The translations under genes were made by a program, and so were the position numbers. From IMG/VR virus record IMGVR_UViG_3300042875_000410: DNA of 64,000 bases. The stretch is one strand, 5' to 3'. The notes beneath the pieces were generated by a model, which saw only the letters and a list, made by a program, of their open reading frames with translations, did no database searches and was not told the DNA's origin. Below, in pieces: positions 14,054 to 53,531 of the stretch. Within the stretch, counting starts at the first letter, position 1. Each line of letters opens with the position of its first letter. The stretch comes from a virus. Taxonomy: Duplodnaviria > Caudoviricetes.

Positions 14054-14439
14054 GATGTTTTCTGTTTTTCTGTAAATCTTTTTTGGGCTCTATGAAATTT
14101 AGCTATGTTGCCAGAAAACAACACTAATTGTACTGCGGTTTTCTCACCAAAAACCCATATTTTTCGAGCAGTTAAGTAAAACGGGCAATCAATATTTTGA
14201 TCTATCCAAATGGCTAATTCATTAGTGAATAAAATGGGTTCTTCAAATTTTATCTCATAACATTTAATATCTGCTTTCTGGAGACATTCGAACCCTTGCT
14301 CAGTTAGGCGTAGCCCACCTTTGAGCTTGTTTCTGGTGTTAACCCACCAGGTAGGAATAGTTTTTTTGATCCTTTGTTCGTCGGCGGGCAATCCTAATGA
14401 CTCCAGGACAGCTTTGGTTATTTCATGCTTCGGATTCAT
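14050..14439 (-). CDS. Hypothetical protein
   Basis: Tiled ORF, no recognised motif. Confidence 0.55.
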   Translation of the reverse strand: MNPKHEITKAVLESLGLPADEQRIKKTIPTWWVNTRNKLKGGLRLTEQGFECLQKADIKCYEIKFEEPILFTNELAIWIDQNIDCPFYLTARKIWVFGEKTAVQLVLFSGNIAKFHRAQKRFTEKQKTS

Positions 14440-14722
14440 TTTCGACTTTTTCTCCGGTAGTCAACTTATACACGGAAAAGTCTGTTGTATTGAAAGTTTT
14501 GTTTAGTTTTTCGGATAGATTAAACGCATGTCCACTATTTGAAAAACTTACTTTTTTATACTTTGGACCTAGTTGTTGTGCTACTACACTGCTGGTTTTT
14601 AAATTGATAGGTTTGTCTTTGTAGAATACAGCCCAGATAGCATCAGCTTCCAAAACCTGATCAGTTTTGTAATTCTTTTTATTTGTAATCTCTAATAAAA
14701 TATTTGGTTTTGGTCTGCTCAT
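14423..14722 (-). CDS. Hypothetical protein
   Basis: GGAGA SD; TAAATA at 14749-14754 upstream. Confidence 0.55.
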   Translation of the reverse strand: MSRPKPNILLEITNKKNYKTDQVLEADAIWAVFYKDKPINLKTSSVVAQQLGPKYKKVSFSNSGHAFNLSEKLNKTFNTTDFSVYKLTTGEKVENESEA

Positions 14723-25277: not shown

Positions 25278-27950
25278 TCAATCAAAGGAAAATAATTTGC
25301 CAAAGGTATTGTCTTGGGTAGTTGATTCTAAATCCCAATCCAGCACACCGATGAGGTTGTCCAGTTTGTTGTTAATGATAGCAGTTTCCATTTCGCTGTG
25401 ATCGAATGGCAGGTCTTGGAACCATTTAGGTAATCGCATCTCATCGACCGGATAAGCAATGGATGTGTAGCCTAATGGATTGTCTTTAACTTTACAAACA
25501 ATGACCTTCATGCCGTCAACAATGCCCATTGAGTATTTGTCACCGTTCATGCGTTTTAGCGTATTCCAGTTAATAGCAGCACGGACATGCCCTGGCATAT
25601 TAGCCTTGCCTTGTTTAGCTTCCTTGGCTTGATACTCTGTGATGTTGTTAGCTCGTTTGGGACTACCCTTCTCCCAACCTGGACGGGCTTTGAACTCAGT
25701 CCGGAACGCACTGATCATTTCTAGAATTTCTTGTTCCTCTGCACCATTCAGTACTCGAGTAAGAACTTCTTCTAAGAACTTTTGCATAAATTCGGGAGTA
25801 TCACTACGCTTAAGATCTAGACCCATAGCTTTGATCTTACCTGGCTTACCGTCAGTGTCCTGTCTCTTACCATCTTTGTCGTAATACAATACTGCATAAC
25901 GTTTCTTGGTAATGAACAGGCCTTTAACAGCAACAATTTCTCGCCCACCTTTGATAACCTCACCGCGTGTCTTTGGGCAATGAAATGCATCCAACATGAA
26001 CTGCGGGAATGTTGCATTTACGTTTTCGGCAATCTGATCATACAACTGAATAACAACATCTCTATCCCAAGGGATTAGCTTTTTGTTAATATCAGTCTTT
26101 AGCGTATTATAAGCTGAGAAGTAGCAACTGTCAGTATCACCGTAGATAATACTCTTACCTACGTGATCAAACTCACCGGTAATCATTTCATTGACTTTGC
26201 CTGCCATATGCTTGGCAATCTGCCTGCCAACAAGTGTAGTGGACTGCCCAATACGCTTATCAAAGAATCTGCAACCAGGATTCAAAATAGCACCATACAA
26301 ACTATTCAAGTTAATCTTCTTGACCAACTGTCGCTTGTCCCAATACTCTTCTTCGATCTTGTTACCTGCTTCGATAGCTGCCTTGAGCTTCTTCTGCATA
26401 TCTTTACGTTCAGCATACCATCGCTTTAACAGTCCAGGAATAATGCCTTCATGTTCATAGGTAAAGATAGTGCCGTTGGCGCTTAACATCCAAGGTTGAT
26501 TACTGTCAAAGATTAACTTATATGCTTCAGCTGCACTCATAATATCACTTTGATCGTTTTCCCAATCAACTGTAATTTCAAATGCACGGTCCTGTTGCAT
26601 AACTGCTTCATACTCTAGGCTACCAAACATACCTTCCCAAGCCGCCGCAAATGATTTTTTATGAACCATCATTTGTTCATCGATATGTTGATCTGTCCTG
26701 TCCTGACGTAACTGACCGATGATAGTTTCTGGACCCATGTTGAGCGCACGAATAGCTGACGGATACAATGAGTTAATGTCAATAGATCCGATCCAGTCGT
26801 GGATACCTTTCTTGGGATATGCAACATAAGCACCTGCTGCCTGATTATTTGCGTCCTCGTCACGTTTGGCACGATTGGGCACAATGAGACCACGGTGGTG
26901 GGCTTCGTTTACAATAGCCTGTTCAGTTACAGCAACTGCACCCATTGTGGTCTGTAATAGCACCGTACATTCGTGTGCCAGTGTGTTAGCAAGATCGATA
27001 AACTTTAGTTTCTTATCCAGCTTGTCTAACAATGCGGTATCTTGTCTGTTGTACTCAATGAACTTACGGAAGTCATTGTTATATAACTGATCAAGTGTAC
27101 CTTCATAGTGAGTCTTGCTCTCGCCTACTTCCATCTCTCCAATGGCATCCAGTCGGTAAGTGTGTCGCTCTTCATATGTGTATTTGCGGTACAGCTCGAG
27201 ACTGTCCAGATGAACACGACCAACCAGATCATAAGTAACAGCCGCTTTTCCATATTTTTCGTACTCTCTCTTCTTGGGAAATTGACCCCACAGACAAAAT
27301 CTACGAGTGTCTTCTTTACTCAGTGCTTTGATAACTCTGTTAACTGTGTAAGGGATATCATAGCCTTCACTGTTCCATCCACTGAGAATGTCAGCATCTT
27401 GAATGAGATCCAAAAACGCATCTAACATCTCTGCTTCAGTTTCAAACAGATGTGTATTAGGAAAGTCCTTAACTAACGCTGTTGCTTGCTCCATTGTCAG
27501 GGTCTTTGGAGGAACAGCAAAGCAGACCAGTGTGTCTAACCATTGTAGGTGAACAGCAATCGATGTAATAGGCATGAAAGCATCCTCGGGGGTGCTATAA
27601 CCTCTTTCAGGATCAAAGTCCACCTCAATGTCGAAGAACGCCACATTGAGTTTAGGCGGTTCGTGATTGAGATAGTTTTCTTCTAGGGTTTTGAATACAG
27701 TGTTGATGTCTGATTCATACAGTCTGTGGCTGCTGTGGATCCGTTGTTCTTTTTGAAAGTCTTTGTAGGACCTTGTGACAACTTTATTTAGATTTTCACC
27801 GTAAATTGATTTGTATTTTCCGCGTTGATCGGGATAATAAAATGTATATCTTGCAGGAAACTCCTGAAAGATTCTGCCTTTCTTTAGATCACGCTCAACG
27901 ACATGCACAATGTCTTTGTCGCGATCCCACATGGCATCGACGTAGCTCAT
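25278..27950 (-). CDS. Family B DNA polymerase (T4 gp43-like); probable start is the ATG at 27950
   Basis: Exo I FDIEVD, Exo II WNSEGYDIPY, Exo III YNRQD; pol motifs DINSLYPS, KINLNSLYG, YGDTDS; AAGGAG SD precedes MSYVDA. Confidence 0.97.
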   Translation of the reverse strand: MSYVDAMWDRDKDIVHVVERDLKKGRIFQEFPARYTFYYPDQRGKYKSIYGENLNKVVTRSYKDFQKEQRIHSSHRLYESDINTVFKTLEENYLNHEPPKLNVAFFDIEVDFDPERGYSTPEDAFMPITSIAVHLQWLDTLVCFAVPPKTLTMEQATALVKDFPNTHLFETEAEMLDAFLDLIQDADILSGWNSEGYDIPYTVNRVIKALSKEDTRRFCLWGQFPKKREYEKYGKAAVTYDLVGRVHLDSLELYRKYTYEERHTYRLDAIGEMEVGESKTHYEGTLDQLYNNDFRKFIEYNRQDTALLDKLDKKLKFIDLANTLAHECTVLLQTTMGAVAVTEQAIVNEAHHRGLIVPNRAKRDEDANNQAAGAYVAYPKKGIHDWIGSIDINSLYPSAIRALNMGPETIIGQLRQDRTDQHIDEQMMVHKKSFAAAWEGMFGSLEYEAVMQQDRAFEITVDWENDQSDIMSAAEAYKLIFDSNQPWMLSANGTIFTYEHEGIIPGLLKRWYAERKDMQKKLKAAIEAGNKIEEEYWDKRQLVKKINLNSLYGAILNPGCRFFDKRIGQSTTLVGRQIAKHMAGKVNEMITGEFDHVGKSIIYGDTDSCYFSAYNTLKTDINKKLIPWDRDVVIQLYDQIAENVNATFPQFMLDAFHCPKTRGEVIKGGREIVAVKGLFITKKRYAVLYYDKDGKRQDTDGKPGKIKAMGLDLKRSDTPEFMQKFLEEVLTRVLNGAEEQEILEMISAFRTEFKARPGWEKGSPKRANNITEYQAKEAKQGKANMPGHVRAAINWNTLKRMNGDKYSMGIVDGMKVIVCKVKDNPLGYTSIAYPVDEMRLPKWFQDLPFDHSEMETAIINNKLDNLIGVLDWDLESTTQDNTFGKLFSFD

Positions 27951-27960
27951 ATAGTTCTCC

Positions 27961-27980
27961 TTACCGCTTATGGCCGGCAA
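27961..27980 (-). promoter_or_regulatory. Hairpin abutting the polymerase SD (candidate translational operator)
   Basis: UUGCCG-GCCAUAAG-CGGUAA directly followed by GGAGAACUAUAUG. Confidence 0.4.
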
Positions 27981-28990: not shown

Positions 28991-29608
28991 ACTTTTTTCT
29001 GTGTATTCTGCCCTAGTCCAACCAAGAAGAAAGTTTGCTTTCCAATCATTTTGTGCAAAGCCAGTAAGGTTTTTCCATTGATCTCTGTGTGCTAGAACCT
29101 GTCGAGATGCATCACGCCAGTCAGTGTGTCGTACCTTAAAATCAAACATCTGCATAGATTTTAGGAATGTGTCGTAGTCGTAGTTGTCATACTCGACGTG
29201 CAGTACTTCATAGATATTACCAGCGTCATCTACTGCATCTAATGCAAAATCAAATCCCCATTTCTGTGGAGTTTTCAATAACCACTCTGCCTCGGGAATA
29301 TCCTTTTTTATTTTTCTTAGTTGATGTTCTGCGTAGTCCTCGTATCTGCAACGATGCAGGATCAATGAGTGATCTAGTATTAGACCTATATCGTTATATT
29401 CTAGAGCAAACCAAGGTTCTTGCCAGCAGCGATGATTAAGTATAGGATGGTCTATAGGATGGTGCATCATCCCGTAATATTTCTGTTCTGCTTGATTTAA
29501 TTCAAATCCGTCTTTGTCATAGAATTTAAAATCTTCTGCAACAACATTGTAGATGGGCTCACTACAGACAGGATTTGATACTACCGGTACATCAAATCTT
29601 TTAAACAT
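28979..29608 (-). CDS. Hypothetical protein
   Basis: Globular aromatic-rich ORF; no family recognised. Confidence 0.55.
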   Translation of the reverse strand: MFKRFDVPVVSNPVCSEPIYNVVAEDFKFYDKDGFELNQAEQKYYGMMHHPIDHPILNHRCWQEPWFALEYNDIGLILDHSLILHRCRYEDYAEHQLRKIKKDIPEAEWLLKTPQKWGFDFALDAVDDAGNIYEVLHVEYDNYDYDTFLKSMQMFDFKVRHTDWRDASRQVLAHRDQWKNLTGFAQNDWKANFLLGWTRAEYTEKSLTL

Positions 29609-29611
29609 GTT

Positions 29612-29821
29612 TTATTTTTTTGTGGGCTGCTTTGCATCGTAGTAGGCTGCTATAGCCATACGATCTTTCTTTTCTGGATCTTTGTTTTTAAATTGACGAT
29701 ATTGATTTGGGTCAGCAGTTTGAAAACGTTGTTTCCAATAGTCAATAGGCATATCGGGCCTTAGTTTAGGCTGTGGTCCGACTGGCTTAGTTTGTTGAGC
29801 AGGCTCCTCTGTCGGTGCCAC
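29612..29821 (-). CDS. Small basic module; may be translated as a -1 frameshift extension of the 897-aa protein
   Basis: GTG start with a poorly spaced SD; its frame stays open upstream across the A-AAA-AAG at 29839-29845. Confidence 0.5.
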   Translation of the reverse strand: MAPTEEPAQQTKPVGPQPKLRPDMPIDYWKQRFQTADPNQYRQFKNKDPEKKDRMAIAAYYDAKQPTKK

Positions 29822-29845
29822 CGGTTCCTGCTCAATTACTTTTTT
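29795..29845 (-). promoter_or_regulatory. Candidate programmed -1 frameshift signal
   Basis: TC-A-AAA-AAG-TAA followed by the perfect 9-bp inverted repeat TTGAGCAGG...CCTGCTCAA. Confidence 0.55.
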
Positions 29846-32529
29846 GATTTCTTCTTTTCAGGAAGACCTTTGTGCTTAGTTGATGCAAAGTCTTTGGCAT
29901 CTTTCTTGCCCATATCCTTGGCTACTTTGGCAACTTCTTTACTGGCAGGCTTTTCACCTTTTTGTGCAGCATGAACCATGCCCATAAACTTTTGTTGCTG
30001 CTTGCTTACTGCTTTTTCACTCAGGACCTGTTGCAATGAGTGGGCAAGACTTTCCATATATACATCAACTTCGGATACTGACTGTTCCATACTTCTCAAC
30101 TCACCAAGTGTGTCGGAAACAAAGTCTTCATCATAGCTGATCAAATATCTTGCCTCCTTTGGCGACATGTTTAATTCTTTGACCAGCACCATGCCTATTG
30201 CGTTGATCAATTCATTTTCTTGTGCAGGATCGTATTTGATTCCACGATCTGATAGAATTTTAGCAACTTGATAACTTGTGCGATCTTCCGGTGCTTCCGC
30301 TACACCTTGCTCACTCTCGCCTATTTCAAGTTCGCCGCGACTAGCCATTCGGTTTTGTAATTTATCCAGATTACCCGACTGCAACTGACTATCAAATTGT
30401 GGTAGCATTTGAGCAAGGGTATCAGGATCCATTTCAATATCAAATTGATTTGATAGTATCTGTTGCCAATTTAGTATTCTTCTTTTTTCTGGTGTTCCTA
30501 TAGGAGCCATGACTACTGCTTTTAGATATGCCATTGCTAAATGTGTTTTGTTTGCTCCAGAGCCTTCCGCCACACCTTGCTCAGGACTATGTCTCAGATT
30601 GGCTATGTAACCATTGGGACCAGTCCATTGATCTTTATAGTCTTGCCATTCGTTCTGACTCCATGCTATAGGGAACATTTGCCAGGCCCACATTCCATGG
30701 GTATTAAACTCGCTAGAAAATTCCTGTATGTCTGCCAGTGTAATACCCGAGGTCTTGGTCTGTTTAGCAACATCAATCAACCAGTGCGCCATGGTTTCGC
30801 CACCGTCTTCGAATTCGCTTAATTTTTTTAATTTATTAAATCTATCTGCACCTTGCTTGGCAAACTCACGGCAAAGATCTTCAAGCCATTTTATAAATTC
30901 CTGACCAAATTTGGCCAATGCAGTCTCGGGGTCGCTGCCTGTTCTTGCAGTGAGGGACTTATTCAAATTATCTACACCTTGCCTGGCACCAGCACCGCCT
31001 GTGATCTGTCCCATCATGCTGTCAAATCTCTCATCGCCTGTTGCCTCCGCCACACCTTGCTTTTTATTTCGCAACAGGCCCACCTGTTTTAGTTTTGGGT
31101 CCATGAAGTAATAAACATTCCCGTCAGCACCCACAGCATGACTTTTACTTGCAGTGTATCCAGTTCTTAATTCATCAGGAGTTGCAGGTCTTACTTGTTT
31201 CACTGATTCACGCAAATCGCCTTCTTCAGGGTCTTGGCCAGTTTTTACAAAATGTTCAAGTTCTTCAAGTGAATAACCAACTTGATCGGCTAGGTTTTGT
31301 TTGTCTTCTGGCGACATTCTGCGCCATCCACTTCTTATTGTTTGTAGTTGTAGGGACAACTCGTGGCGTCTGGTCATTTCGTTACCAGCATTAGTTACTG
31401 GACCGTTTAAAATGTTTCTGATTTCTGAAGTATAGTATGCGTCTGCTTTACCTGCCATTTGACTACCGTACTGTTGACCTAATGTTTTCCCACCAAACTT
31501 TTTGACTTGTTGTGCGCTTAATACTTTGGCAAGATGCGTAAAATCTTTTCCGTTTCTTATTGCGGCTACTAGTTTTTCTTCGGCCGCTTCAATCCATTCT
31601 TGGAATTCAGGATCTGCTTGAACGGCCAAGTTGTCTACTTCTTGATTATAGAAGTCAATTGATTGTTGGTGCCCATCTGTACCTGCGGCATTAGCTGGCA
31701 TGTTTACACTTGAGCTACCAAATGCCTCCGCCACACCTTGCTTTGGCAAATCACTTAATTGATCCGGAATATAGTCTTCATCGTAACTTAATAAGTAACG
31801 AATTTGTTTTGAACTCATTCCTGCTTTCTTCATGTATTGAGCCATCAATCCGATGAGTTCATCTTCTTTATCTGGGCTGTAGGTAATGCCGTCTTGAGCC
31901 ATTTGCTGTCCAATGGACAACTTAGTTTGATCCGCTGGGATACTCAAATACTGGTCGCCTGGCATACTGGCTCCACCTTCCTCTACACCTTGCTGCTCTG
32001 CTTTTGCTTTGGCCTCATCTCTAGTACGACTATAACCTTGGGCTATTGCTAGTTGTACTTGATTAGGGTAGACAGACGTTTTGAACATTTTACCATCTTT
32101 AACAACATACCAGTCTGTTGGATCTAAGTCGTGTCGTTCATCATCGCCGCGATTGAATGCACCACCTACTCCACGAAATGGCATGCCTGCTTCTGCTAAC
32201 TTTGATTTTAGTTGATCAATTTTTGTGCGTAGAGATTCCATATAGGGCTTTTTATGTTTTGCAGCGCCCTGCTTTTGTTCTTTTTTCTTATCCTTGTGTG
32301 CGCCTGCACCACTGGACTTGGCATTCTTAGCAACAAAATTACGGGGAGTAGTTGCAGGAACTTTGTCTTTACCTGCTTCTTGTGCCAAGATATTTCCGCG
32401 CTTTTGGACTTTGCCTAACGAGCTCGGTGCTGTAGCAACACTACCTGAACCGGTTGCACCTGCTGTCATTGACTCTAATGTATAGCGAGTTTCGTTATTG
32501 CTTTTTGATTTTTTAAATTCGTTGTTCAT
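29836..32529 (-). CDS. 897-aa modular protein (candidate head-packaged polyprotein), five QGV(A/E)E linkers, C-terminal DUF3008-like module
   Basis: QQGVEEG, KQGVAEA, KQGVAEA, EQGVAEG, EQGVAEA separate unrelated segments; C-terminal KAVSKQQQKF...DFASTKHKGLP resembles DUF3008. Confidence 0.6.
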   Translation of the reverse strand: MNNEFKKSKSNNETRYTLESMTAGATGSGSVATAPSSLGKVQKRGNILAQEAGKDKVPATTPRNFVAKNAKSSGAGAHKDKKKEQKQGAAKHKKPYMESLRTKIDQLKSKLAEAGMPFRGVGGAFNRGDDERHDLDPTDWYVVKDGKMFKTSVYPNQVQLAIAQGYSRTRDEAKAKAEQQGVEEGGASMPGDQYLSIPADQTKLSIGQQMAQDGITYSPDKEDELIGLMAQYMKKAGMSSKQIRYLLSYDEDYIPDQLSDLPKQGVAEAFGSSSVNMPANAAGTDGHQQSIDFYNQEVDNLAVQADPEFQEWIEAAEEKLVAAIRNGKDFTHLAKVLSAQQVKKFGGKTLGQQYGSQMAGKADAYYTSEIRNILNGPVTNAGNEMTRRHELSLQLQTIRSGWRRMSPEDKQNLADQVGYSLEELEHFVKTGQDPEEGDLRESVKQVRPATPDELRTGYTASKSHAVGADGNVYYFMDPKLKQVGLLRNKKQGVAEATGDERFDSMMGQITGGAGARQGVDNLNKSLTARTGSDPETALAKFGQEFIKWLEDLCREFAKQGADRFNKLKKLSEFEDGGETMAHWLIDVAKQTKTSGITLADIQEFSSEFNTHGMWAWQMFPIAWSQNEWQDYKDQWTGPNGYIANLRHSPEQGVAEGSGANKTHLAMAYLKAVVMAPIGTPEKRRILNWQQILSNQFDIEMDPDTLAQMLPQFDSQLQSGNLDKLQNRMASRGELEIGESEQGVAEAPEDRTSYQVAKILSDRGIKYDPAQENELINAIGMVLVKELNMSPKEARYLISYDEDFVSDTLGELRSMEQSVSEVDVYMESLAHSLQQVLSEKAVSKQQQKFMGMVHAAQKGEKPASKEVAKVAKDMGKKDAKDFASTKHKGLPEKKKSKK
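30293..31993 (-). repeat. Dispersed in-frame 18-22 nt direct repeat, consensus GCAAGGTGT(G/A)GCGGA(A/G)G on the coding strand
   Basis: Copies at about 30293, 30563, 31043, 31724 and 31976 (spacings 270, 480, 681, 252, all multiples of 3); 31042-31063 and 31723-31744 are identical over 22 nt; partial copies at 34558, 34381 and 33611. Confidence 0.85.
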
Positions 32530-50584: not shown

Positions 50585-51274
50585 TTATACGGAAAAAGCA
50601 GTCTCTCTAAGGATAAACTCTTCAACTTTTTTGATGTATCCGCTCAAATATATGCCTACCATGCTGAGCATTTTGTCGTCTTCTACGTACATAAAGGGAT
50701 CTTGTGCGTAGTGTCTAGTGCTTACAAGCCATCGTCTACTGGTTTCGCTAATGTCTAGCTTGTCTCCGTACTTATCTGCCCAGGTTACAAATGTAGCTCG
50801 CTTGTCTGCAGGGAATCTTGATTTAAAATATACCCTGTATTTGTACTTTTCTTTGGGAAATACGTCTCGCAGTATCTTTTTATGACCATTACTAAGCATG
50901 AATTCTAGTTCTTGGTCCGTAGTCGGCCCGCTTATCTTTCTAATCCACTTGTTTAGATCTTTATCTATTGTTTCTAATATAGATTTGTCTGTGCAAAATA
51001 GATTAAAATGCGACCCTTCTACTCGAATTTTTACATCGGGGTTGTCAATGAACGGTGCTACTAAGTTAGTAAACTCTAAGTAATCTGCTTTGTTGATTTG
51101 CAAAGCAGACAGCCTATCAACGTGCATACCTTTACCAGTAGCACACCACTCTCGAACAATATCGACTCCGCTGTGAACAATTCTAGAGGCTCCTACTTGT
51201 CTACATTCGACTTTGTAGGGCCACTTGTTATAGAACAGTTTACTGGAGTTCAGTTTCTGTATCTGTGTTTTCAT
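50585..51274 (-). CDS. Hypothetical protein (probable start 51274)
   Basis: Tiled after clpA; no family recognised. Confidence 0.5.
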   Translation of the reverse strand: MKTQIQKLNSSKLFYNKWPYKVECRQVGASRIVHSGVDIVREWCATGKGMHVDRLSALQINKADYLEFTNLVAPFIDNPDVKIRVEGSHFNLFCTDKSILETIDKDLNKWIRKISGPTTDQELEFMLSNGHKKILRDVFPKEKYKYRVYFKSRFPADKRATFVTWADKYGDKLDISETSRRWLVSTRHYAQDPFMYVEDDKMLSMVGIYLSGYIKKVEEFILRETAFSV

Positions 51275-53531
51275 CTGGAATCTTTGATTTAATGACTGGC
51301 ATAACATCAACAATGTTAAGTTTTAGTTGTTCGTCTACTACATTAACTTCAACTACTCCGCCGTTTGTTAATTTACCAAAAAGAATTTCACGACTCATAG
51401 GTTTCTTAATGAATTCGTCAATAGTTCTTTGCAAAGGACGAGCACCCATTTTACTATTAAATCCTTTGGCAATTAAAAATTCAACTGCTTCGGCATTGGG
51501 TTTAACATGAATATTTTTGTCTTTAACTAATGCATTGAGCTCGTCAATAAATTTCTTAACAACTTTGATCATTGTAACATGGTCTAACTTACCAAACTTA
51601 ACAATACCATCTAAACGATTGCGGAATTCAGGCGCAAAGAATTTGTTAACAGCATCTTTAGGATCACTATCACGCTCTAGACTACCAAAGCCTACTGAAT
51701 TCTTTTCAGCATCTGCGGAACCTAAGTTTGATGTCATAATGATAATAGCATTGCGACCATCTGCCTTTTTGCCGTTACTACCGGTAATAAAACCATTGTC
51801 CATTAATTGTAGCATAACAGTTAGTACATCCGGGTGAGCCTTTTCGACTTCGTCTAATAAAAGAACACAGTTAGGTGTTTCTTGTAAGCATGTAATCAAC
51901 TGTCCTGCATTTTCATCAAATCCTACGTATCCAGGCGGCGCTCCAATAAATTTAGCAACACTATGTTTTTCCTGAAATTCACTCATATCAAATCGTACAA
52001 GTTTAATTCCCATACCAGTGGCGAGCTGTTTAGCAGCTTCAGTCTTTCCTACGCCAGTAGGACCTACAAACAAGAAACTACCGACCGGCTTATTAAATGG
52101 TTTTAATCCTGCTTGGGCAATAAAAATCTTATCTAACAGGCTAGTGATAGCATTTTCTTGACCGAAAACCTTGTTACGTAGGCCTTTTTCCAGACTTGCA
52201 AGATTAACACCTTCTTTTGAGCTAACCTGTTCAATTGGAAGATTAGCCAGTCTTGCAACTTCAAAAACAATCTCGTCATGATCAACAACTCCGTTTTCTT
52301 CGTCCTTAACTTTAAATCGAGCACATGCACAATCAATTAAGTCTAGCGCCTTATCTGGAAGCTTCTTGTCAGTCATGTACTTAACAGAGTAGGTTACTGC
52401 ATCAGTAATGGCTTGATTGGTAATCTTAACACCGTGGTGTTTTTCGTAATACTTCTTAACACCTTTTAGGATCTTAATAGTAACTGCTTCACTAGGCTCG
52501 TCAATAGTAACACGCTGGAATCGACGCATTAGGGCGCGATCTTTTTCAAAGTGCTTGCGATATTCTTCCCAGGTAGTACTGGCGATAACTTTTAGTGTAC
52601 CTTTTGTCAGCATAGGCTTGAGCATATTTGCCATGTCGTTACTGTTACCATTTGCAGCGCCTGCCCCGTTCATCATATGTGCTTCATCGATAAACAGAAT
52701 ACAATTTTTCTTCTTTTCTAACGCACTGATAATAGCTTTAAGACGTTCTTCAAAATCACCACGATACTTACTACCGGCAAGCATAGAACTAATGTCCATA
52801 CTATAAACAGTGTGATCTTGAATAAATGTAGGAACAGTACCTTCAATGATTTTTTTAGCCAAGCCTTCTGCAATAGCAGTTTTACCTACACCGGGATCAC
52901 CGATTAAAATAACGTTACTTTTGTTTCTTCGAGCAAGTACTAGTTGAACTTCTTCGATTTCTTTTTCACGACCGATAACTGGATCAATTTTCTTTGATTT
53001 TGCTTTTGCAGTTAGATTGGTGCAGAACTGACTAATCATCCTTTCAAGTTGGAGATTAGATCGTGTGCTACCTGCAGAACTCTCCTCATTGTCTTCTTTG
53101 CTATATTCTTTTTGGATAAAATTTAGGAATTTATCTTTATCGATATTTGCTTTTTTAATAAAGTGCGTGGCATAGCTTTTCTTTTCAGCAAACATGCTGA
53201 TAAAACAATCAACTGGTTCAATAACATTTCTACCAGTAAACAACACCTGAGTAAACGCTCGATTTAAAACGCGATCAACTGTATTTGTTTTTTTAGGACG
53301 ATCGACGCTTGGGTTAACAATTTCCTTTAAATCTTCTGATATATATTTTTCTAAGTCTGTAATTAAACTTTTAACGTCAGCACCAAAGCTACCGAGGAGT
53401 TTTGCAAATTCTTCGTTAGTAACTAGCCCGTGCAAGAAGTGTTCAAGAGTAACATACTCGTGTTCGTGTTCGTTGGCTAGACTCACGGCTGATTCGAAAA
53501 TCTGCTCAAGATCTTTATTTGGTTGTAGCAT
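51240..53531 (-). CDS. clpA: Clp protease ATP-binding subunit ClpA
   Basis: N-domain EYVTLEHFL; two Walker A motifs (GDPGVGKT, GPTGVGKT); DMSEFQEKHSVAKFIGAPPGYVG; ClpP-docking VGFG loop; GARPL. Confidence 0.93.
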   Translation of the reverse strand: MLQPNKDLEQIFESAVSLANEHEHEYVTLEHFLHGLVTNEEFAKLLGSFGADVKSLITDLEKYISEDLKEIVNPSVDRPKKTNTVDRVLNRAFTQVLFTGRNVIEPVDCFISMFAEKKSYATHFIKKANIDKDKFLNFIQKEYSKEDNEESSAGSTRSNLQLERMISQFCTNLTAKAKSKKIDPVIGREKEIEEVQLVLARRNKSNVILIGDPGVGKTAIAEGLAKKIIEGTVPTFIQDHTVYSMDISSMLAGSKYRGDFEERLKAIISALEKKKNCILFIDEAHMMNGAGAANGNSNDMANMLKPMLTKGTLKVIASTTWEEYRKHFEKDRALMRRFQRVTIDEPSEAVTIKILKGVKKYYEKHHGVKITNQAITDAVTYSVKYMTDKKLPDKALDLIDCACARFKVKDEENGVVDHDEIVFEVARLANLPIEQVSSKEGVNLASLEKGLRNKVFGQENAITSLLDKIFIAQAGLKPFNKPVGSFLFVGPTGVGKTEAAKQLATGMGIKLVRFDMSEFQEKHSVAKFIGAPPGYVGFDENAGQLITCLQETPNCVLLLDEVEKAHPDVLTVMLQLMDNGFITGSNGKKADGRNAIIIMTSNLGSADAEKNSVGFGSLERDSDPKDAVNKFFAPEFRNRLDGIVKFGKLDHVTMIKVVKKFIDELNALVKDKNIHVKPNAEAVEFLIAKGFNSKMGARPLQRTIDEFIKKPMSREILFGKLTNGGVVEVNVVDEQLKLNIVDVMPVIKSKIPDENTDTETELQ

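Follow-up and report, generated by a model that had tools for sequence, protein, structure and literature searches.

Programmed -1 frameshifting of the dnaX/IS3 type is a known kind of bacterial recoding. In dnaX of Escherichia coli (tau/gamma), as at the locus described here, an A_AAA_AAG heptamer is followed, after about 5-6 nt, by a simple stem-loop on its 3′ side, and one mRNA gives (in our case, would give) two products that have their N-terminal part in common. The OrfA/OrfAB systems of the IS3 family (IS911, IS150 and IS3) likewise combine heptamers of the A_AAA_AAG type with a 3′ structure, and their trans-frame fusion is the longer product, as it would be here. The A_AAA_AAG heptamer is less slippery in bacteria with a separate tRNA-Lys(CUU); E. 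coli has a single tRNA-Lys. In E. coli, A_AAA_AAG shifts more readily than any other known heptamer (PMC5009743). Other elements arrive at the same end during transcription: Thermus dnaX by slippage on a run of 9 A/T, and elements related to the IS3 family by transcriptional realignment on homopolymer runs (PMC5009743).

In phages, C-terminal extensions produced by frameshifting are carried by structural proteins of T3/T7 (gene 10A/10B), Lactobacillus phage A2 and Listeria phages A118, A500 and PSA, and Ig-like domains are among them (Fraser et al. 2006, as cited in PMC5009743). They resemble the case proposed here in that (i) a shift close to the 3′ end of the gene equips part of the copies of a protein with a small accessory module, and (ii) one and the same module may be in or out of frame, depending on the phage. 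The gpG/gpGT tail assembly chaperones, which lambda-like and other tailed phages encode, offer a further parallel, i.e. a conserved -1 frameshift of dsDNA phages with a short and a long product.

The large uncultured phage analysed here most likely makes two versions of an 897-residue modular protein, since a conserved A_AAA_AAG heptamer with a stop codon next to it, together with an RNA hairpin, would permit a -1 slip. We found no published report of this frameshift, and the site appears to be a previously unreported case of the dnaX/IS3 type.

Layout of the locus and of the putative signal

The relevant features of the window (the whole stretch of 64,000 nt that was analysed) are as follows:

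29836-32529, minus strand: zero-frame ORF of 897 aa (P0001), encoding a modular protein
29845-29839, minus strand: slippery heptamer A_AAA_AAG in the X_XXY_YYZ phase (zero-frame codons TC-A AAA AAG)
29838-29836, minus strand: zero-frame stop TAA, immediately 3′ of the heptamer
29835-29795, minus strand: putative 3′ stimulatory hairpin, with arms UUGAGCAGG (29835-29827) and CCUGCUCAA (29803-29795) and inner pairs between them
29839-29750, minus strand: linker of 30 codons in the -1 frame (VIEQEPVAP...KLRPDM), with third-position variability that fits this frame
29749-29615, minus strand: 45-aa C-terminal module in the -1 frame (PIDYW..F..ADP..Y.QFKNK.PEKK..MA.AA.Y.AKQP.KK)
29614-29612, minus strand: -1 frame stop TAA, 3 nt before the ATG of the next gene (29608)
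29821-29819, minus strand: GTG, the gene-caller start of a 69-aa ORF, rejected as a real start

The 897-aa protein, which is probably a virion-packaged cassette protein, contains five QGV[AE]E[AG] linkers (at residues 180, 264, 491, 651 and 741) as well as YMESL motifs at residues 96 and 824, and its last module (residues 833-897) is DUF3008-like. The 3′ end of its ORF reads ...GAA AAG AAG AAA TCA AAA AAG TAA on the minus strand, and the heptamer is in phase before the stop, as the original prediction had stated. Read in the -1 frame, the sequence from the heptamer onwards gives KKVIEQEPVAPTEEP... and, again in agreement with that prediction, runs on into the 69-aa ORF; this frame is open until the TAA at 29614-29612. 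The Shine-Dalgarno (SD) sequence of the 69-aa ORF was correctly described as poorly spaced, with GTG 29821 lying 4 nt after AGGA. The frameshift would add 75 residues to the 897-aa protein, giving a predicted product of 972 aa. An extra basic module of about 76 aa had been proposed: the predicted extension has 75 aa, and the word basic applies to the last 45 residues only (pI 9.7), because the first 30, the proline-rich linker that encodes both hairpin arms, are acidic (pI 4.6). Two predicted peptides are characteristic of the long product, i.e. the Glu-C peptide KKKSKKVIE, which spans the junction, and the tryptic peptide VIEQEPVAPTEEPAQQTK, which lies within the linker, 5′ of any start codon in the -1 frame.

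A perfect 9-bp stem begins 3 nt past the heptamer, exactly where it had been predicted. The free energy of the hairpin (RNAfold) is -20.4 kcal/mol, compared with -10.0 ± 2.5 for 200 shuffled sequences (z -4.2), none of which was as good. The absence of a U tract 3′ of the stem also proved correct and no minus-strand terminator was predicted at this position, so an intrinsic terminator was rejected.

An in-phase heptamer, an open -1 ORF that has no conserved start of its own and a 3′ RNA structure about 5-9 nt past the heptamer, which together characterize dnaX/IS3-type sites, are all present. Overlap between genes makes long open -1 frames frequent in the window (they follow the stops of 21 of the 83 ORFs of 100 aa or more). 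This ORF is the only one with both an in-phase heptamer and 60 or more codons of -1 extension. The 10-mer AAAAAAGTAA is found twice in the window against 0.55 copies expected; the second copy (14548-14557) was dismissed as a chance match, encoding an in-frame K-K-V-S inside a 99-aa ORF. A search of positions 29500-30000 gave no match to an Rfam frameshift element, only a chance lncRNA match (E 0.97). The sequences 5′ of the heptamer differ between contexts. At a distance of 10-14 nt from it, where dnaX has an SD-like stimulator that is not obligatory for sites of this type, no conserved GGAG- or AGGA-like element was seen in the junction listings. No tRNA genes were detected in the window or in the one related 125-kb record searched. 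A sequencing error was rejected, since two other metagenomes contain identical copies of the locus and there are only six A in the run. The window alone is suggestive, and proof therefore rests on the relatives.

Conservation among related loci

The comparison set consisted of 169 metagenomic loci with the 45-aa C-terminal module. In 88 of them (54 distinct junctions) a long ORF precedes the module and has it in its -1 frame; the module is in the +1 frame in none of the 169. The original prediction had named the heptamer, the stem and an in-frame fusion as the things to look for in relatives; all three were found there, and the comparison supports a reading by programmed -1 frameshifting. The signals are present and conserved. 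An in-phase A_AAA_AAG or A_AAA_AAA occurs at all 54 distinct frameshift-type junctions, and TAA abuts the heptamer in 43 of 45 distinct sites, being one codon further in the other two. The codon that supplies the first A of the heptamer varies (GCA, TCA, ACA, CCA, CTA, GAA or AAA); its third base is invariably A, and the seventh base of the heptamer is only G or A. The heptamer was found behind at least five different upstream module ends. The best tblastn match to the 897-aa protein (L001) was set aside as uninformative on the frameshift, as it is a different, 1470-aa polyprotein that has one cassette in common.

The GAGCAGG/CCUGCUC core of the hairpin begins 5 nt past the heptamer in 41 of the 45 distinct sites, and the others lack a hairpin and have runs of 9-10 A. 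This 5-nt spacer is fixed, and it is retained in locus L194 although the stop lies one codon later. The arms also encode conserved residues (E-Q-E and P-A-Q), and the arm codons are constrained at the nucleotide level, with the rare codons GAG in 41/41 and CAG in 40/41 cases versus a background usage of 18% and 25%, respectively. The 7-bp core is invariant across the sites and, since it never varies, yields no covariation evidence. The inner pairs covary modestly (GC four times versus UA four times at one pair, and one CG-to-GC change), with a covariation score that is reached by 5 of 500 shuffles and slide controls that are not clearly worse. In a low-resolution tree all sites of the hairpin type fall into a single clade; what the 41 sites record is thus conservation over a long time, and they do not count as 41 separate events.

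The -1 frame shows coding constraint. Variability is highest at the third codon position of this frame (e.g. 0.03/0.04/0.18), and the linker and module are stop-free and under purifying selection down to about 40-50% identity. The distance from the heptamer to the QFKNK motif ranges among relatives from 29 to 57 codons, in whole codons throughout.

In-frame homologues exist as well. The module matched 1224 representative clusters (E up to 0.001) and is nearly always C-terminal in the best 150 of these. Most members of the family carry it in frame; the production of two isoforms is thus not required throughout. The AlphaFold2 model of the module is composed of two helices with zero beta strands (pLDDT 81). 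Neither Pfam nor PHROGs gave a match for the module, a Foldseek comparison of the model with the PDB returned nothing significant, and a tblastn search of 50,697 cultured-phage records found no match to the module or to the N-terminal 125 aa.

Proposed mechanism and rival explanations

We consider it very likely that a programmed -1 ribosomal frameshift joins the 897-aa protein to the 75-residue extension. When a translating ribosome reaches A_AAA_AAG, lysine tRNAs would sit on AAA and AAG, and the conserved hairpin, with its core 5 nt downstream, would then be located at the mRNA entrance. A fraction of the ribosomes would back up one base, re-pair on AAA_AAA and decode GUA AUU GAG..., adding the flexible acidic linker and the two-helix basic module of 45 aa, and the unshifted ribosomes would stop at once on the adjacent UAA, giving the 897-aa product. 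We infer the ribosome as the place of the slip, and likewise its efficiency and purpose.

Exactly the same protein would result if RNA polymerase made the shift, i.e. if slippage on the A run added one A to some mRNAs, which were then read conventionally into the extension. All 23 distinct sites that lack the hairpin have 9-10 A, a length on which bacterial RNA polymerase slips efficiently (PMC5009743), and this suggests transcriptional slippage at those sites. The window, however, has just six A before a G. A transcriptional slippage site would be expected to have about nine or more A/T, and the runs on which bacterial RNA polymerase is described to slip have 9 A or T (PMC5009743). Moreover, all 41 distinct A6-7 sites possess the hairpin, at a spacing typical of ribosomal stimulators, and it occurs in none of the A9-10 sites. 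Slippage by the polymerase is thus improbable for the locus in the window. The complementary pattern is the one to be expected from two different mechanisms: the A6-7 route with hairpin, to which the window belongs, is probably ribosomal, and the A9-10 route without it probably involves RNA-polymerase slippage or an extended slippery run. If in-frame fusion is included, the family would reach the same outcome by three routes.

A different type of explanation dispenses with the shift altogether. The 69-aa ORF, or a 46-aa ORF starting at ATG 29752, could be an independent small gene with its own start, the heptamer being merely part of the Lys-rich tail of the upstream protein. Such C-termini, ending in AAA AAA or AAA AAG, are indeed common in the family even where there is no shift, and open -1 frames are frequent in the window, as noted above. 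Both starts are preceded by SD-like sequences (AGGA 4 nt upstream of GTG 29821 and AAGG 6 nt upstream of ATG 29752), and the ATG, at the D-M-P-x-D-Y-W position, is kept in most frameshift-type relatives. Initiation at GTG 29821 was nevertheless rejected, as this codon is not conserved and occurs only in the lineage of the window. The AAGG before ATG 29752 is not conserved either, and is missing in L002 and L003, while the -1 ORF has no ATG, GTG or TTG in its first 60 codons in L199 and L118 and no start codon before codon 58 in L133. In addition, the 30 codons upstream of the ATG are conserved as protein, with variability at the third position of the -1 frame and length changes in whole codons only, the -1 frame extends back to the heptamer without a stop in all 88 loci, and relatives hold the same residues in frame within longer proteins. 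An independent gene is therefore quite unlikely, and the internal ATG could additionally yield the module alone in the window. It is more difficult still to accept that the gene is in decay, or that a frameshift mutation in it is tolerated, so that only the 897-aa product matters and the downstream frame is a relic. Many relatives have the module in frame, and the change of a single base could have disrupted a fusion that the ancestor possessed; against this stand the purifying selection on the stop-free linker and module, the conservation of the heptamer and hairpin at synonymous positions and the identical copies in independent metagenomes, which leave this explanation with hardly any probability.

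Differences from described systems and significance

The split of the phage family into A6 sites with a hairpin and A9-10 sites mirrors that between dnaX of E. coli and of Thermus. The differences from dnaX are that (i) the dnaX-shifted ribosome terminates early and the shifted product is shorter, whereas here the shift would bypass the stop and add 75 residues, (ii) dnaX has a contributing upstream SD-like element, of which no conserved counterpart was seen here, and (iii) the gene families are unrelated. IS3-family frameshifting serves transposase genes of mobile elements, in contrast to the modular, probably virion, protein of a phage considered here, in which, moreover, the zero-frame stop abuts the heptamer nearly always. 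The phage structural proteins differ in their carrier, which here is a cassette protein with QGVAE linkers and not a capsid or tail-tube protein, and in the module itself, which is a predicted two-helix basic domain of 45 aa and not an Ig-like fold: no Big_2, I-set or FN3 domain was found in it, its AlphaFold2 model having two helices and no beta strand and Pfam giving no match. A further difference is that here the heptamer, stop, hairpin and linker stay with the module, and it is the upstream partner that changes.

Frameshifting might set the number of copies that carry the C-terminal module. Taking this further, we tentatively propose that the heptamer, the stop next to it, the hairpin, the Pro/Glu linker and the 45-aa module may constitute a portable recoding cassette, which would have stayed intact while recombination placed it after five or more different modules of phage cassette proteins. 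Members of the family would alternate between slippage on the ribosome (A6-7 with hairpin), slippage of the polymerase (A9-10, which may precede the module or even lie within it) and fusion in frame, and would in this way tune the number of virion-packaged copies with the module, a stoichiometry dial for head-cargo proteins.

Gene callers split the gene into the 897-aa protein and an orphan 69-aa 'hypothetical' ORF, and as a consequence protein databases lack the predicted 972-aa product, a problem that also affects dozens of distinct metagenomic phage contigs. For research on recoding, the family provides a natural comparison series, with one module and three apparent expression routes in close relatives, and the strict complementarity of its sites (41/41 versus 23/23) may be used to test what makes the hairpin dispensable. 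As regards phage biology, it points to large uncultured phages regulating the stoichiometry of the C-terminal module on their modular proteins, which are probably packaged into the virion.

The gpG/gpGT frameshift differs from the present one in that it lies between the tail tube and tape measure genes, involves about 120 aa plus 100 aa and has another function. A tail assembly chaperone of this kind, for which an ORF of about 100-150 aa and a -1 ORF of similar size would be expected, was rejected for the locus, as the carrier ORF encodes 897 aa and adjoins the PolB gene, the AdoMet decarboxylase gene and a 1606-aa modular ORF. When the cassette pattern was scanned for before other modules, the leftover matches were either in-frame KKxxEQE motifs in unrelated ORFs or ordinary tail-chaperone sites. 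Two examples of the latter (L281 and L288) are quite unlike this locus.

Candidate slip site and predicted shifted product of the 897-aa ORF

The candidate -1 frameshift site lies at the 3' end of the ORF encoding the 897-aa modular protein, and is composed of the following elements.

Features of the candidate frameshift site and its reading frames
29836-32529, minus strand: ORF of the 897-aa protein, with the 3' end ...AAG AAG AAA TCA AAA AAG TAA
29845-29839, minus strand: slippery heptamer A_AAA_AAG, in X_XXY_YYZ phase
29838-29836, minus strand: zero-frame stop TAA, abutting the heptamer
29835-29827 and 29803-29795, minus strand: base-paired hairpin arms UUGAGCAGG and CCUGCUCAA, directly 3' of the stop
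29614-29612, minus strand: TAA stop of the -1 frame; the ATG of the next gene is 3 nt further on

This inspection confirmed the ending TCA AAA AAG TAA with an in-phase A-AAA-AAG before the stop, as well as the stem just past it. As originally noted, there is no U tract 3' of the hairpin, and no minus-strand terminator is predicted at the site; the site does not match any Rfam family. The hairpin region (61 nt) has a folding energy of -20.4 kcal/mol (z -4.2); 200 dinucleotide shuffles gave -10.0 +/- 2.5 kcal/mol, and not one of them was as good (0/200).

Following a -1 slip the reading would be K-K-V-I-E-Q-E-P-V-A-P..., open for 75 more codons, giving a predicted product of 972 aa. The original prediction of an extra basic module of about 76 aa is borne out for the 75-aa extension and its last 45 aa, which form a basic module (pI 9.7), while the first 30 aa constitute an acidic, proline-rich linker (pI 4.6).

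Long open -1 frames are common in the window (following 21 of the 83 ORFs of >=100 aa) because the genes overlap; among these 83, only this ORF combines such an extension with an in-phase heptamer. The window sequence by itself is no proof of frameshifting, and lysine-rich tails are common in the family. A second copy of AAAAAAGTAA (14548-14557, minus strand) was rejected as a recoding site, since it encodes an in-frame K-K-V-S within a 99-aa ORF (14423-14722).

Three arrangements of the module among relatives

Comparative evidence is the core of the case for the putative frameshift. IMG/VR and JGI metagenome contigs were scanned with the 897-aa protein, the extension and the module alignment, which yielded 242 loci (designated by L-numbers), 169 of them with the module. 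In class A (88 loci, 54 distinct junctions), the module is located in a short open frame that is shifted by -1 from a long ORF upstream of it. None of the 169 module-bearing loci has a +1 arrangement, and only at contig ends do short ORFs of the module lack an upstream partner. The original prediction had left it to the relatives whether heptamer and stem are kept or the two ORFs are fused in frame, and both situations were found. An in-phase A_AAA_AAG or A_AAA_AAA is present at all 54 distinct class A junctions, and the hairpin in 41 of the 45 distinct 85-nt sites; the stop abuts the heptamer in 43 of the latter and is placed one codon further in the other two. In class B the module is an in-frame C-terminal fusion of long proteins, e.g. 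L004 and L008, which match the window's protein in their N-terminal domains.

Class C (19 distinct loci: L007:4340-4420 and 18 others, including L213-L232 and L138-L146) contains an in-frame module broken after ...KNKxPEKKK by GAA AAA AAA AAG TAA, a 10-A run. The -1 frame supplies its last helix (MATAALYKARQP...); a protein made by a -1 shift would have exactly the length of the in-frame relatives. As the stop overlaps with an ATG (TAATG), termination-reinitiation may replace slippage here and yield a free peptide of ~17-19 aa.

When 1.84 billion representative proteins were searched with a profile, 1224 clusters with the module were recovered (E <=0.001). In the best 150 of these it is almost always located at the extreme C-terminus of proteins of 48 to ~1000 aa; as predicted from classes A and C, they also include orphan ORFs that are short and proteins truncated at profile position 45. 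In five loci (L088:2501-3370, L178:2259-3221, L176, L194 and L115) the -1 frame runs beyond the module into more modules (e.g. NENFADGK...GGRKGQLAHWLANMKAGRAKK), so that the frameshift sits mid-protein and adds ~110-320 residues.

Expression of the extension and the nature of the probable shift

Several observations suggest that translation enters the -1 frame at the heptamer and not at a separate start codon. GTG 29821, the possible start of the 69-aa ORF, is restricted to the window's lineage. There is no ATG, GTG or TTG within the first 60 codons of the -1 ORF in L199 and L118, and no start before codon 58 in L133. The usual ATG in D-M-P-x-D-Y-W is replaced by a V codon in one subgroup, and the AAGG preceding this ATG in the window is missing in L002 and L003. 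The distance between the heptamer and the QFKNK motif of the module varies from 29 to 57 codons, with the frame always kept and zero stops. Nucleotide variability of the linker is highest at third positions of the -1 codons in all three length groups (0.03/0.04/0.18, 0.51/0.49/0.78 and 0.67/0.56/0.87). In L006, L115 and L117, the residues right after the shift (E-R-Q-L-E-P-T-M-D-L-D) are the ones read in frame by class C.

The signals also appear to be under selection as nucleotides. The codon supplying the first A of the heptamer is GCA, TCA, ACA, CCA, CTA, GAA or AAA; thus, the residue is free and the third base fixed. Base 7 is only G or A. At least five unrelated endings precede the heptamer (...KGLPEKKKSKK, ...AWKAKNKAKK, ...YFESLRAKVEELAKK, ...NKGYKSHKAKK and ...ALESKK). 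The hairpin core GAGCAGG/CCUGCUC starts 5 nt past the heptamer in the 41 hairpin sites, and this spacing is unchanged in L194, although its stop lies one codon later. Since the core is invariant it provides no covariation evidence; inner pairs show modest compensatory change. The codons of the 5' arm (GAG in 41/41 and CAG in 40/41, compared with 82% GAA and 75% CAA elsewhere in the same genes) probably constitute better evidence of RNA-level constraint than pair covariation. In dnaX-type sites the base of the stimulatory stem is placed at the mRNA entry of the ribosome (PMC5009743). With AAA in the P site, AAG in the A site and the 5-nt spacer, the stem base would lie ~12 nt from the first P-site base, at this entry, in the arrangement customary for -1 stimulators.

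The site shows the tested sequence features of a canonical bacterial -1 frameshift signal, with the exception of the optional upstream SD-like element, and the family is a further case of the known dnaX/IS3-type design. It is very probable that the extension is expressed by means of a -1 shift, as a fusion to the 897-aa protein; that the shift is purely ribosomal is also probable, if somewhat less so. Ribosomal frameshifting of this type would generate isoforms of 897 and 972 aa, unshifted ribosomes terminating immediately at the adjacent UAA. This codon may also assist through slow decoding (the "shifty stop" effect). Its near constancy is found within one clade, so function is not separable from inheritance there; suggestively, it recurs at the class C sites, which are placed separately.

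Slippage of RNA polymerase is another possible route. The bacterial enzyme is efficient at slipping on 9-nt runs of A or T, and Thermus dnaX relies on such slippage where E. coli dnaX uses a ribosomal shift (PMC5009743). Every one of the 41 hairpin sites has an A6-7 run, and A9-10 runs are present at all 23 distinct hairpin-less sites (4 from class A, 19 from class C). Folds downstream of the long runs are mostly unremarkable (z -0.3 to -2.2; -3.4 in L115). The likeliest mechanism at window-type sites is ribosomal frameshifting; for the remaining sites it is slippage of the polymerase or a slippery run of extended length.

In a low-resolution tree of the module, the hairpin-type sites form one clade, class C a second together with L210, L115 and L117 (three of the four class A sites with long runs), and most in-frame forms a third. 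The 41 hairpin sites consequently record long conservation of a single origin, not many independent origins, maintained while recombination brought in different upstream modules. The slip site is found at no fewer than three different positions across the family. Because the module is in frame in most family members, the two isoforms are a refinement specific to the lineage, with no general need for them. The special value of the family is that it offers a natural series, one module with three expression solutions. In this it works like the extensions at the C-terminus of capsid and tail proteins, where certain phages encode the accessory module in frame and others out of frame (PMC5009743). 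Our literature search found no paper on the module-bearing family or DUF3008.

The tail assembly chaperone G/GT site was rejected as the identity of the window's site. A scan for the cassette pattern detected two ORFs, of 119 and 123 aa, in L281 (4564) and L288 (12123, minus strand), ending LKKK-stop on A_AAA_AAG and followed by a -1 ORF of ~70-110 aa; these look like ordinary chaperone sites of this kind.

The module, its carrier protein and the phage

The module (29615-29749, minus strand) is predicted to be a two-helix domain (AlphaFold2, pLDDT 81), with no match in Pfam, PDB or cultured phages; an Ig-domain extension was rejected. Model m1578a59d02ad (29615-29800, minus strand) superposes on parts of uncharacterised viral proteins of the ESM Atlas (TM 0.64-0.72 over 47-49 residues), some of which carry a DUF5824 or cytidylyltransferase-like domain. 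Phage proteins may carry the module widely as an appendage. It forms the conserved C-terminus of a family with a variable middle, so that it may plausibly act in targeting, anchoring or packaging.

The 897-aa protein contains five QGV[AE]E[AG] linkers, two YMESL motifs and a DUF3008-like last module. A different polyprotein of 1470 aa (L001:970-5382), with a cytidylyltransferase/NMNAT-like N-terminus, has one cassette in common with it (residues 490-687 of the 897-aa protein, 88% identity), flanked on both sides by QGVAE linkers, which is direct evidence of cassette shuffling between proteins. A stand-alone 69-aa DUF3008-like homolog of Synechococcus phage S-SCSM1 (L243; MK867354.2, 91626-91835) is annotated as a virion protein. 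Two genes away, an NMNAT is annotated likewise; this neighbourhood recalls the window, where a 1606-aa ORF with an adenylyltransferase-like part adjoins the 897-aa ORF.

The window (40% G+C) is derived from a large uncultured myovirus-like phage. Its family-B polymerase (25278-27980) shares ~50% identity with that of Sinorhizobium phage Phosso and 46% with that of Agrobacterium phage Atu_ph07, both with genomes of >450 kb. Genes for tail fibre and virion proteins are located in the vicinity. A 763-aa ORF (51240-53531, minus strand) very strongly matches the phage Lon-like ATP-dependent protease family (phrog_4871, E 3e-250).
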